64,000 nt of DNA. Origin: Verrucomicrobiaceae bacterium UBA1938 (GTDB lineage Bacteria > Verrucomicrobiota > Verrucomicrobiia > Verrucomicrobiales > Verrucomicrobiaceae). The stretch's first letter is position 1. Every line of letters starts with the position of its first letter. Under the pieces are notes generated by a model. The model had not been told where the DNA came from, did no database searches, and saw nothing but the letters and a program-made list of their open reading frames with translations. The DNA lies in contig DDFC01000030.1 of NCBI GenBank assembly GCA_002336895.1, positions 47,326 through 111,325 of the forward strand. Reading direction: 5' to 3'. The translations under genes were made by a program, and so were the position numbers. Below, one piece after another: positions 7,331-9,759 of this stretch.

Positions 7331-7735
7331 TCACTTCCTGCCGCGCAGCCACCGCACCAGCAGGATCAGCGTCAGCGTGGTCGTGGCACCCGTCGCATCC
7401 GCGATCAGGTCGCGCATTGTCTCCCCGATGCTGTACTGAATGTGCGTGTGAAGGAAAATATCCGAGGCAAACTCTGCAAACTCCCAGAACACACCCACCG
7501 TGCAGGCCAGCGCAAAGGCGAACAGATACCGCGCAAAGGAGGTCAGCTCCCCCAGCCGGTGCGCAAAGAGCTCCAGCGCATGCCAGAGAAAGTAGGTGAT
7601 CGCCAGCCCCCCGCTGTAGTGCATCACAAAATCCAGCGGCTCTCGCCAGCGCGTGTGCTGGATCTCATGATGAAAGACCAGCACCGCCAAAGGTGCCCAC
7701 CCGGCGCGCAGCAGCAGGCGGAGCAGCGGCTTCAT
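7331..7735 (-). CDS. Small membrane protein (VanZ/DUF2238-like)
   Basis: Several hydrophobic helices, H.SGG and WEFAEF..D...D motifs; start overlaps stop of upstream gene. Confidence 0.6.
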   Translation of the reverse strand: MKPLLRLLLRAGWAPLAVLVFHHEIQHTRWREPLDFVMHYSGGLAITYFLWHALELFAHRLGELTSFARYLFAFALACTVGVFWEFAEFASDIFLHTHIQYSIGETMRDLIADATGATTTLTLILLVRWLRGRK

Positions 7736-8283
7736 AGTCTCGGCCAGTTCACTTTGGCGATCTGCTCGCGGCCGTTGCGGTCGTGGTACTTCACGTGGCC
7801 GTTCTCCACGCCGTACTGGTGCACGCACATGGTCACCTTCACATCGTAGCAGCAGTATTCGGCGATCTTGGCCACCTCTCCCTGCTGCCACCATTTCAGC
7901 GCATCCAGGCCGTCGGCGGTTTTGCCCGCGCCGATCGTGGCCGAGGCCACGGCCTCCAGCTTGATGCGGTGCCCCAGCGTCTTTTCCAGATCGATCAGCA
8001 GGTCCAGGCTGTGCGGCAGGTCGGCTGGGTCAAAGAGCAGGTCGTGCCCTTTCAGCACCTCGTAGTCAAACCCGATGTGGTTGTACCCCACCACCAGATC
8101 CGCCTCCTTGAGCTGGCGGATCAGCGCGGGCGCTTCCTCCTGCGTGTAGATGGAGTACTCGTTCAGCCGCGTGCTGAAGGTGCACGCCACCGAGATCCCC
8201 ATCATGTGCTTGTTCCCCCAGCCGCCCACGTCATTCGCGGTGCGGCGGGTTTCCAGGTCAAAGTAAACAATGTCTCCAGCCAT
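7732..8283 (-). CDS. Stand-alone RNase H-like / DEDD 3'-5' exonuclease domain protein
   Basis: YFDLET, VGYNHIGFD, DLL and YCCYDV acidic motifs. Confidence 0.75.
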   Translation of the reverse strand: MAGDIVYFDLETRRTANDVGGWGNKHMMGISVACTFSTRLNEYSIYTQEEAPALIRQLKEADLVVGYNHIGFDYEVLKGHDLLFDPADLPHSLDLLIDLEKTLGHRIKLEAVASATIGAGKTADGLDALKWWQQGEVAKIAEYCCYDVKVTMCVHQYGVENGHVKYHDRNGREQIAKVNWPRL

Positions 8284-8312
8284 GAGATGAGCGCAGGCCC
8301 TGAGGCGGAGGC

Positions 8313-8777
8313 TTAGCCAATGCGGTAAACGATGCGCGCCTTGTCCATGTCGTAGGGGGACATTTCGATCTTCACCGCGTCGCCGATCACGAGACGGATG
8401 AATTTCTTGCGCATCTTGCCGGAGATATGGGCCAGCACTTCGTGGCCGTTGCGCAGCTTCACGCGGAACATCGTGCCCGCGAGCACAGCGGCGATGGTGC
8501 CTTCCAGCTCGATGGCTTCTTCCTTCTGCTTTGCCGGTTCCTCAGGTTCCGGCGGACGCGGCGGCGGGGAAAAGCGCTGGCCACCACCAGCAGGTCCGCT
8601 TGGGCGGCGCGGAGGGCCTCCGCTGCCACCACGGTTGGGGCCTGGGCCGGGACCGCGGTTCGGACCTGGGCCTGGGCCGCGATTAGGGCCGGGACCACGG
8701 TTGGGACCGCCGCTGGAATTGCCCGGGCGGGGAGGACCAGAACGTGAGGGGCCGCGATTGGGAGGAGGACGTGACAT
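8313..8777 (-). CDS. infA: Translation initiation factor IF-1 with Pro/Gly/Arg-rich N-terminal extension
   Basis: C-terminal 70 aa KEEAIELEG...[22 protein letters not shown]...GD.V..EMSPYD..KARI.YR is canonical IF-1. Confidence 0.92.
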
Positions 8778-8938
8778 GCGTGAAAAAAAGATGGGCGTGA
8801 GGATGCTGCCACCGCCGGGGATTACAAGGGTAATTTTGTGCCGCTGGCGGCGGCAAATCCCTTTGTGGAAATTCGGGCAGACAAAAATCTCGCCCCCCTG
8901 CGTCCTTCTCGTCGAAACTGCCTCCCTCTTCCCAGCGC

Positions 8939-9445
8939 ATGTCCGCCGCCCCCACACTGCCTGAAATCTATGATGCCCACGCGGCGGGCCTGTTTCATTA
9001 CTTTGCCAGCTTCACCGGTGCTGAGGCGGATGCCAAGGACCTGCTGCAGGACTTCTTTCTCAAACTGGGCCGGCAGCACATCCCGCCGGGCATCGCCAGC
9101 ATGCGCGCCTGGCTGCTCCGGCTGGCGCACCACCACGCCATCGACTGGCTGCGCCGCCATCAGGTGCGGCGGCGCGCGGAGGTGGCTGCCCCGGTGGAAA
9201 CCTTCGCTGCTCATGCGGACCCCGACCAGCAGGAGCTGGCGCGGCGTCTCACCCGTGCCCTGGCCGCACTGCCGCTGGAGCAGCGCAGCGTGGCCCAGCT
9301 CAGGCTCTGGGACGGCCTCACCTTTGAAGAGATCGCAGAGGTGCAGGGCATCCCGCTCAACACCGCCGCCAGCCGCTACCGCTACGCCCTGGAAAAACTC
9401 CGCACCGAGCTGCGTCCCTTCTACGACGAACTCAAGCCCTCATGA
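8939..9445 (+). CDS. ECF sigma-70 factor
   Basis: Region 2 [10 protein letters not shown] / WLLRLAHH, region 4 LPLEQR...[25 protein letters not shown]. Confidence 0.88.
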
Positions 9446-9759
9446 CCCCCATGATCCCGGAACCCGATGCCTTTGAATCCACCCTGCGCGCCCTGCAGCG
9501 CCGCCCGCTCCCGGCGCAGTGGCGGGAGGAGATGTTGCAGGCCGCCGCTGTCGCCAAAGTATCACCACAGCCCGCTCGCACTCCGCGCTGGCTGCTCGCT
9601 GGCTGGGGTCTCGCCTGGGCGGCCACGTTGGTGCTCTACCTCGGCACCCCGGCGGAGCCGCCGCCTGCGCCCTCCGCCGCTCTGGGTGCCGCCACACCGC
9701 CCGCCCGGCTGTTGCAGCAGCACAGCGCCGAGATCGAGGCCCTGCTGGCCGCCAACTGA
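9442..9759 (+). CDS. Putative single-TM anti-sigma factor
   Basis: 4-nt overlap with sigma gene, FE..L..L.RRPLP..WREEML N-terminus, one TM segment. Confidence 0.6.
   Translation: MTPMIPEPDAFESTLRALQRRPLPAQWREEMLQAAAVAKVSPQPARTPRWLLAGWGLAWAATLVLYLGTPAEPPPAPSAALGAATPPARLLQQHSAEIEALLAAN

Follow-up and report, generated by a model that had tools for sequence, protein, structure and literature searches.

Bacterial translation initiation factor IF-1 is among the smallest and most uniform of the universal proteins, and its textbook form comprises some 72 residues with nothing beyond the OB fold. Canonical members of the family (TIGR00008), such as the 72-residue E. coli protein (1AH9) and the T. 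thermophilus factor seen on the 30S subunit (1HR0, 5LMN), have this fold and a single gene copy. The same Pfam family includes eIF1A and aIF1A. In eIF1A the OB domain occupies the A site like IF1, and a basic N-terminal tail passes beneath the initiator tRNA in the direction of the P site, in the vicinity of the mRNA channel, and makes start-codon selection less stringent (PMC2731904). Here we describe an infA gene, encoding IF-1, from a 64,000-nucleotide stretch of DNA of Verrucomicrobiaceae bacterium UBA1938 (contig DDFC01000030.1, positions 47,326 to 111,325; hereafter the window), a genome that comparison with named relatives assigns to Prosthecobacter. Its coding sequence (8313..8777, minus strand) opens with ATG at 8777, runs for 154 codons and closes with a TAA stop codon (8313-8315). 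The translated protein shares the OB fold of canonical IF-1, preceded by 82 N-terminal residues that have no counterpart in the solved proteins. On the evidence set out below, we consider it very probable that this tail is translated, selected and carried across the order Verrucomicrobiales.

In domain content, collinearity and copy number the window protein is a bacterial IF-1. Residues 89-152 match the Pfam family PF01176 (IF-1/eIF1A), scoring 78.2 bits where the curated cut-off is 30.2 bits, and 12 distinct bacterial IF-1 sequences from the PDB (chains of 71-87 residues, among them 2n78, 9fco/E. coli, 1ah9, 1hr0 and 5lmn) match it with E values of 2e-23 to 3e-16/1e-15. In these alignments residues 83/84-152 of the window protein run without gaps alongside residues 2-70 of the solved chains. 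Because the latter align from their own residue 2 or 3, the protein comprises a complete IF-1 plus 82 extra residues, just as the preliminary description of this DNA, made from the letters alone, had read a canonical IF-1 preceded in frame by some 82 residues. The OB-fold core (residues 83-154; 8316..8531, minus strand), placed by these alignments and by an AlphaFold2 model, contains the motif AHISGKMRK and ends with RIVYRIG. A whole-genome profile search of the 6.87-Mb assembly (95% complete) identified this protein as the sole PF01176 match, and one match per genome was likewise found throughout the Prosthecobacter genomes examined. Only its size falls outside the range of bacterial IF-1 proteins, about 70-87 residues; this is a variant feature and no argument against orthology. 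By the measures of domain, collinearity and copy number, the window gene is the genome's single orthologous infA, and binding of its product to the 30S A site, together with essentiality, would follow from that orthology.

The N-terminal extension (residues 1-82; 8532..8777, minus strand) is recognized by its composition, by the AlphaFold2 model, by its conserved ends, and by coding-type substitutions and in-frame insertions and deletions (indels) among relatives. With 27 Pro, 21 Gly, 12 Arg, 8 Ser and 6 Asn residues it is indeed the RG/Pro-rich tail that had been described, and it carries a net charge of +9 at an isoelectric point of 12; all three of its acidic residues fall within the last seven positions (PEPEEPA). 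It holds seven RG dipeptides, a single RGG in 82 residues and a lone aromatic side chain, one Phe. The N-terminal motif reads MSRPP(P)NRGPSR, and the five PNRG motifs reported earlier use exactly the codons then given (CCC AAT CGC, CCC AAC CGT, CCT AAT CGC, CCG AAC CGC and CCC AAC CGT). Tandem Repeats Finder detects one diverged array in the tail (8628..8690), with a period of 24 nucleotides (eight codons, GPGPNRGP-like), 2.6 copies and 79% identity. This result agrees with the earlier argument against recent slippage. In an AlphaFold2 model built from a 38-sequence alignment, residues 1-88 have predicted local distance difference test (pLDDT) values of 46-57 and no secondary structure, and the remainder adopts an OB fold of five strands and one helix with pLDDT values of 72-89. 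The tail is predicted to be intrinsically disordered, as had been suggested.

Comparison of 42 distinct Prosthecobacter infA sequences identifies the tail, at the level of sequence evolution, as coding sequence under purifying selection whose length changes by in-frame gain and loss of repeats. An in-frame N-terminal tail of 32-147 residues is present in 42 of 42 sequences, so that close relatives do not lack the extension, an outcome for which the preliminary description had allowed. No loss was seen among about 60 genomes sampled from the genus, nor in any sampled genome of two other families of the order (f2 and f5). The N-terminus is conserved in the genus, one variant reading MASPNYKGNNPRPG, and so is the junction with the core, R(F/Y).PPPR(P/E)PEPE...K(Q/A)KEEAIELEG. 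The middle of the tail consists of species-specific tandem units, such as GPPNRS repeated six times, SSGPPRGIVGG three times, GGPPRPGG ten times and GGTGNLANGGPGRSSS three times, and the tails of relatives also contain GRGRGRG or PRGIVGG units.

Summed over 11 species pairs, picked from 15 compared such that each species was used only once, the tails differ by 305 synonymous and 91 non-synonymous codon changes; the IF-1 cores show 0-3 non-synonymous differences per species pair. Nucleotide alignments made without codon information, summed over 12 species pairs, place 80, 60 and 405 tail substitutions at codon positions 1, 2 and 3, respectively, and 22 of their 24 gaps have lengths divisible by three. 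The remaining two, of 11 nucleotides and 1 nucleotide, occur in one and the same pair and together make 12. Even the closest relative differs from the window gene in the repeat region by in-frame indels of 15, 3 and 15 nucleotides. The synonymous excess, the third-position bias and the in-frame gaps bear out the maintenance at protein level that had been proposed from the differing PNR codons. Because the frame has been kept in all 42 sequences despite these length changes, with the substitution pattern of coding DNA, the open tail frame is not, on this comparative evidence, a chance product of GC-rich DNA. The tail DNA is single-copy, without a second copy elsewhere in the genome, and an origin from the dispersed intergenic repeats of the genus was ruled out by this uniqueness.

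An IF-1 match was obtained in 199 of 201 sampled genomes of the Verrucomicrobiales, and counting one locus per genus we found the tail in all sampled genera of families f1 (nine genera), f2 (seven), f5 (six), f6 (two) and f8, as well as in f7, as judged from the alignment. Family f4 is mixed, with six genera carrying the tail and eight lacking it, and f3 is without it. Named genomes with the tail are those of Prosthecobacter, Verrucomicrobium, Luteolibacter, Haloferula, Akkermansia and metagenome-assembled genomes of the Akkermansiaceae. Chthoniobacterales (including Udaeobacter), Limisphaerales, Kiritimatiellae and Gammaproteobacteria start IF-1 only 1-5 residues before the core, and a canonical start was found in 39 of 40 genomes outside the order, a sample that covered 14 additional families in the class and another 20 in the phylum. 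The sole exception (L202; G219, family f29) carries 35 basic residues, MNRPKRSNQRSNARRGGADQKRTPRPAPQESTDTL, which are unrelated to the Verrucomicrobiales tail and are probably an independent gain. The preliminary description had conceded that N-extended IF-1 might be common in the phylum: its proposed comparison of orthologous N-termini supports this for the Verrucomicrobiales, where most families carry the extension, and not for the other genomes sampled. As far as these genomes represent their groups, the IF-1 tail is a trait of most of the Verrucomicrobiales and not of the rest of the phylum. Since the extension is the norm in the order, the window gene is no peculiarity of its genome. An Ala or Pro in the VL(A/P)GTMF loop of the core was considered as a correlate of the tail and rejected, since Ala occurs in the tail-less Chthoniobacterales and Pro in two f4 genera that carry the tail.

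Public databases hold 3050 matches of 85-270 residues, and many of the extended proteins are named plainly 'translation initiation factor IF-1'; examples are those of P. fluviatilis (123 residues), P. dejongeii (109 residues) and Roseimicrobium (136 residues). A full-text literature search retrieved no description of an extended bacterial IF-1 or of an infA gene with a non-canonical start, and the order-wide tail appears to be undescribed.

In some relatives the beginning of the tail is marked by a start signal of another kind. A strong Shine-Dalgarno sequence combined with an AUU, AUC or AUA start codon is the hallmark of infC and the target of autoregulation by IF3 (PMC5499595), and the infC gene of F. 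johnsoniae starts with ATA (PMC7797042). Extended infA genes resemble this arrangement in eight relatives from two other families, in which the open tail frame contains no ATG, GTG or TTG at all; a perfect AAGGAG lies 5-7 nucleotides upstream of an ATC, ATT or ATA codon, exactly where the low-complexity frame begins. The coincidence of this signal with the first codon of the tail independently places the start at the tail N-terminus. Among the Akkermansiaceae, 11 of 20 loci have AAGGAG with ATC, ATT or ATA, the other nine having ATG and no Shine-Dalgarno sequence, and f6 infA genes likewise have AAGGAG with ATC, ATT or ATA. The loci behind this observation are L222, L151, L025, L155, L156, L157, L027, L181, L030, L223-L229, L232, L234 and L235.

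The infA gene of Akkermansia muciniphila (L222, G104:C1:~1482490-1482990, minus strand) is a case in point. The sequence AAGGAG-agtcct-ATC opens a frame of 165 codons, which encodes 95 residues rich in Ser, Arg, Pro, Gly and Asn followed by the OB fold, and the 101 codons ahead of the core contain no canonical start. Public models of this protein have 64 residues (ACD05058.1, from a GTG inside the fold), 66 residues (RefSeq 'MULTISPECIES', beginning with an ATT on the border of the fold) or 52 residues; records carrying the name of A. muciniphila ATCC BAA-835 match the truncated proteins read at this locus, and an exact database look-up found no record of the 165-residue protein. These gene models are truncated and miss the tail, the likely cause being that the real start is probably the AUC. 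Akkermansia has been published as scarce in Shine-Dalgarno sequences, with a conserved CCUCC (PMC10783764), so that the strong Shine-Dalgarno sequence at infA stands out. Our literature search found no demonstration of infA regulation through a non-canonical start.

A similar arm is found on a second small initiation factor. The genome's own infC gene (G000:C38:34347-35306, plus strand; L255/L256), located with PF00707, has GGAGG, six nucleotides and ATA, and thus a start like that of the extended infA genes of relatives. Its frame reads (I)SNPFQQLSGGSFAPRPQQGQGTGGPPQRPTGPAGPP...GGFRPGGGNRPGGRDRPNNGRFVDQT ahead of the canonical RINERIRAPKVRVV, amounting to about 94 extra residues; this N-terminal tail is rich in Pro, Gly, Ala, Arg and Gln, and a C-terminal tail is rich in His and Asp. 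In all 23 Prosthecobacter loci that reach the N-terminus, infC has a Shine-Dalgarno sequence, an ATA or ATT start and a tail of 85-125 residues, whereas the N-terminal stretch of IF3 in other families of the order has only 17-30 residues. In Prosthecobacter, judged from the reading frames, both small factors carry Pro/Gly/Arg-rich arms. IF-1 and IF3 are adjacent on the 30S subunit in initiation complexes (structures such as 5LMN).

Among translation factors, six-frame motif and composition scans of the genome returned such regions in IF-1 and IF3 only. A general spread of PNRG-type tails over many proteins was discarded as an explanation, the scans giving besides IF-1 and IF3 a few unrelated proteins (SSB, a DEAD-box helicase tail and EF-hand proteins), and so was a transfer of the tail from IF2 to IF-1, since the N-terminal region of IF2, about 290 residues long, is ordinary and not Pro/Gly/Arg-rich. 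The other top match to the PNRG motif is a CRISPR array (G000:C19, ~52400-53500, minus strand) whose repeat translates as SLAIPSRGGRQN. The infC gene is also an exception within this Shine-Dalgarno-depleted genome in having a strong Shine-Dalgarno sequence.

The infA gene of the window differs from infC in its start, which is ATG without a Shine-Dalgarno sequence. After this ATG the next in-frame ATG, GTG or TTG is the GTG at residue 98, within the first OB strand, so that a canonical start at the usual IF-1 N-terminus is missing, as noted previously. The 22 nucleotides before the gene (8778..8799, minus strand) form a T-rich leader, CACGCCCATCTTTTTTTCACGC, with C at position -1. The start region is no more structured than shuffled sequences (z = +0.88), and an Rfam scan of 7600-9600 at E values of up to 1 gave no family match. 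Across 717 long open reading frames (ORFs) of the genome with an unambiguous ATG, Shine-Dalgarno-like tetramers occur at -20 to -4 in 8.5%, compared with 14.8% in a control window farther upstream, and C occupies position -1 in 58% of unambiguous starts, a feature that infA shares. This start context points to initiation that is independent of Shine-Dalgarno sequences genome-wide, a rule that infA would follow.

Upstream, the stop-to-stop frame extends to 232 codons and includes a GTG (ORF 8313-8957, 214 residues). This longer ORF was rejected as the gene: the frame of its extra 60 residues is not preserved in relatives and overlaps conserved promoter-like DNA. Alignment of 42 upstream regions delineates the latter (8800..8827, minus strand) as TTGTAA at 8827-8822, a 16-nucleotide spacer and CATCCT at 8805-8800, with an A/T-rich AAAATTA before it. 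Every member of the genus has an A/T-rich stretch, TTGTMA (TTGTAA or TTGTCA), 16 or 17 nucleotides and a CAYYCT element, the distance from the CAYYCT block to the ATG being 9-13, about 22 (window genome) or about 45 nucleotides. We regard the block as a putative infA promoter, from which the mRNA would begin just before the ATG of the tail and would be almost leaderless in some species. Against this assignment stands a scan of 8200-9000 for strict sigma-70 consensus promoters and for terminators, which found 0 sites. In long-tail Prosthecobacter species (L015, L016, L017, L023, L026 and similar) infA is immediately preceded by a tRNA gene and a T-run. The T-arm of this tRNA reads STGLEPATTRITIW in the infA frame, and with the promoter-like block only 9-13 nucleotides ahead of the ATG, the infA mRNA of these species would have hardly any leader.

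Within the window, infA lies outside a ribosomal-protein cluster and is flanked by the gene for an extracytoplasmic function (ECF) sigma factor and by an exonuclease-like gene. The latter (7732..8283, minus strand; 183 residues, PF13482 and PF10108) encodes an RNase H-like, PolB-exonuclease-like 3'-5' exonuclease and begins 29 nucleotides past the infA stop codon, and the two genes are probably co-transcribed. The exonuclease-like gene adjoins infA in several Prosthecobacter species too, as seen in antisense translations, and the pairing is unusual. Some Akkermansiaceae and other families encode, in addition, a second, very divergent IF-1-like OB protein in an ORF of about 73-81 residues, which scores 18-40 bits against PF01176, mostly under the cut-off, and has no HISGKMRK motif; examples lie at G104:C1:1603302-1603481 (plus strand; L252), G191:C20:36210-36389 (L253) and G174:C18:144453-144629. 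The window genome is without it.

The explanation that best accounts for these data, and that we consider likely, is a two-part IF-1 in which the OB fold is joined to a selected, disordered, polycationic tail that may act as an RNA- or ribosome-binding arm; added RNA binding, a plausible role, had also been suggested in the preliminary description. Translation from the ATG at 8777 would yield an OB fold that docks at the 30S A site, preceded by the tail. As IF-1 occupies the A site in the manner of the OB domain of eIF1A, the tail could follow the mRNA channel in the direction of the P site and bind RNA non-specifically; it could also contact 16S rRNA or the neighbouring IF3. Such contacts would raise the affinity for, or occupancy of, the 30S subunit, or would stabilize the mRNA and the placement of the start codon where no Shine-Dalgarno sequence anchors it. 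This binding mechanism, built on analogy, is put forward tentatively, as one possibility that falls somewhat short of an even balance.

The window IF-1 tail resembles that of eIF1A/aIF1A in lying, unstructured and basic, N-terminal to the OB domain, a likeness of character only. In contrast to eIF1A/aIF1A, the window protein has neither the helical subdomain nor the acidic C-terminal tail and ends with RIVYRIG after the last OB strand; its tail is three to six times longer than that of eIF1A and Pro/Gly-rich, and its best sequence matches are bacterial IF-1 proteins. Lineage-variable, cationic low-complexity regions on conserved RNA-binding cores are also known from different bacterial proteins: Rho has lineage-specific, Arg-rich disordered N-terminal insertion domains (PMC11347177), and an N-terminal extension of IF2-alpha that is not resolved in structures aids recruitment to the 30S subunit (10.64898/2026.06.26.734871).

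Several points weigh against this explanation. Tail length (32-147 residues in one genus) and repeat unit vary extremely, which is also expected of a tolerated, largely neutral low-complexity region. Family f3 and several f4 genera live without the tail, as do Chthoniobacterales, Limisphaerales and Kiritimatiellae; the tail is therefore not needed for IF-1 function in general. Bacteroidota, too, are scarce in Shine-Dalgarno sequences, and we know of no such IF-1 tail in them, which, together with the tail-less lineages of the phylum, makes the link between tail and Shine-Dalgarno scarcity weak. Finally, the comparison with eIF1A is an analogy of position and charge and not a homology of the tails.

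Among the alternatives, the one with most weight, unlikely as we hold it to be, is that the tail is translated and without specific function, having arisen and continuing to change by replication slippage in GC-rich DNA. The free N-terminus of IF-1 would tolerate it, and selection would ask only for a harmless composition, lacking hydrophobic and acidic residues, and for a frame that stays open into the essential OB fold. The span of lengths in the genus, the exchange of repeat units between species (GPPNRS, SSGPPRGIVGG, GGPPRPGG, GTGNLANGGPGRSSS), the in-frame indels even between closest relatives and the lack of a tail in some lineages of the order all fit this view. Frame maintenance alone, however, leaves the roughly 3:1 synonymous excess and the third-position bias unexplained, and neither the genus-wide N-terminal and junction motifs, nor the lack of any loss in about 60 genus genomes and in the sampled f2 and f5 genomes, nor the gain of a similar tail by IF3 in Prosthecobacter speaks for a passive appendage. 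Alternatively, the tail-coding region might serve mainly to set the amount of IF-1. Polyproline at both ends would make synthesis dependent on EF-P, and an unstructured start without a Shine-Dalgarno sequence, or in relatives a Shine-Dalgarno sequence with AUC, AUU or AUA, would render it sensitive to the levels of IF3 and IF1, as in infC. Polyproline motifs are conserved at the two tail ends, with up to seven or eight consecutive prolines in relatives; the strong AAGGAG with ATC, ATT or ATA at the first codon of the tail recurs in 11 of 20 Akkermansiaceae loci and in f6; AUU or AUC at infC is an established target of IF3 autoregulation (PMC5499595); and the genome's own infC begins GGAGG-N6-ATA. 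The window infA, by contrast, has an ATG start, the tails of Akkermansia are without polyproline, and such a throttle needs neither 80-190 residues nor a conserved cationic composition. As the principal role we regard it as distinctly improbable, although it is compatible with an RNA- or ribosome-binding arm and the two are not mutually exclusive.

Very little probability attaches to the proposal that the functional IF-1 is a short form initiated within the frame at a non-canonical codon, such as the ATC at Ile89, after the purine-rich AAGGAAGAAGCC, and that the long form is minor. The RefSeq model of Akkermansia starts at the equivalent ATT to give 66 residues, in two f6 relatives an open Arg/Gly-rich frame is followed by an ATG at the canonical position, and the codons AAG GAA GAA resemble a Shine-Dalgarno sequence. 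This purine-rich stretch, however, encodes the ancestral KEE motif of all IF-1 proteins and is thus no evidence for a ribosome-binding site; the genome in general does not use Shine-Dalgarno motifs; and a start at Ile89 would remove the conserved K-E-E-A. A non-AUG start next to KEEAIE had been named in the preliminary description as a way in which its reading could fail, and as the source of the only product it conflicts with the evolution of the tail as translated sequence in frame with the core: the short form cannot be the sole product, and an additional short isoform may exist alongside the long one. We give equally little credence to the suggestion, also made at the outset, that IF-1 and RNA phase-separate, driven by the RG/Pro-rich tail. 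Its composition resembles that of RG-rich disordered regions, and Arg-rich disordered inserts are known in Rho (PMC11347177), whereas a single RGG is present, one Phe is the sole aromatic 'sticker' of the tail, and IF-1 acts stoichiometrically on 30S subunits. In part, these alternative readings overlap with one another.

A more far-reaching scenario, which we mention as speculative and doubtful, is a remodelling, in the Verrucomicrobiales, of the 30S initiation complex on its factor side. Long disordered arms rich in Pro, Asn, Arg and Gly on IF-1, and in Prosthecobacter also on IF3, would extend to the mRNA channel, the P site or one another and assume part of the positioning of mRNA and start codon in a lineage that has mostly abandoned Shine-Dalgarno pairing, convergently with eIF1A, and infA in Akkermansia and other families would be under infC-like control. 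If this were true, IF-1 synthesis would be tuned by initiation fidelity itself in Akkermansia and those other families.

The window gene is ordinary for its order, and it is the infC-like start in Akkermansia, together with the parallel tail of IF3, that offers a worthwhile experimental lead. The truncated IF-1 models of A. muciniphila affect proteomics databases and work on translation in that organism. Across most of the order, this human gut bacterium included, tails of 30-190 residues are carried on the only IF-1. Contacts of the tail with mRNA, rRNA or IF3, should they exist, would make it a bacterial counterpart of the eIF1A tails that determine start-codon stringency, as well as a handle, testable in cultured strains, on how start sites are chosen in bacteria in which Shine-Dalgarno sequences are scarce.

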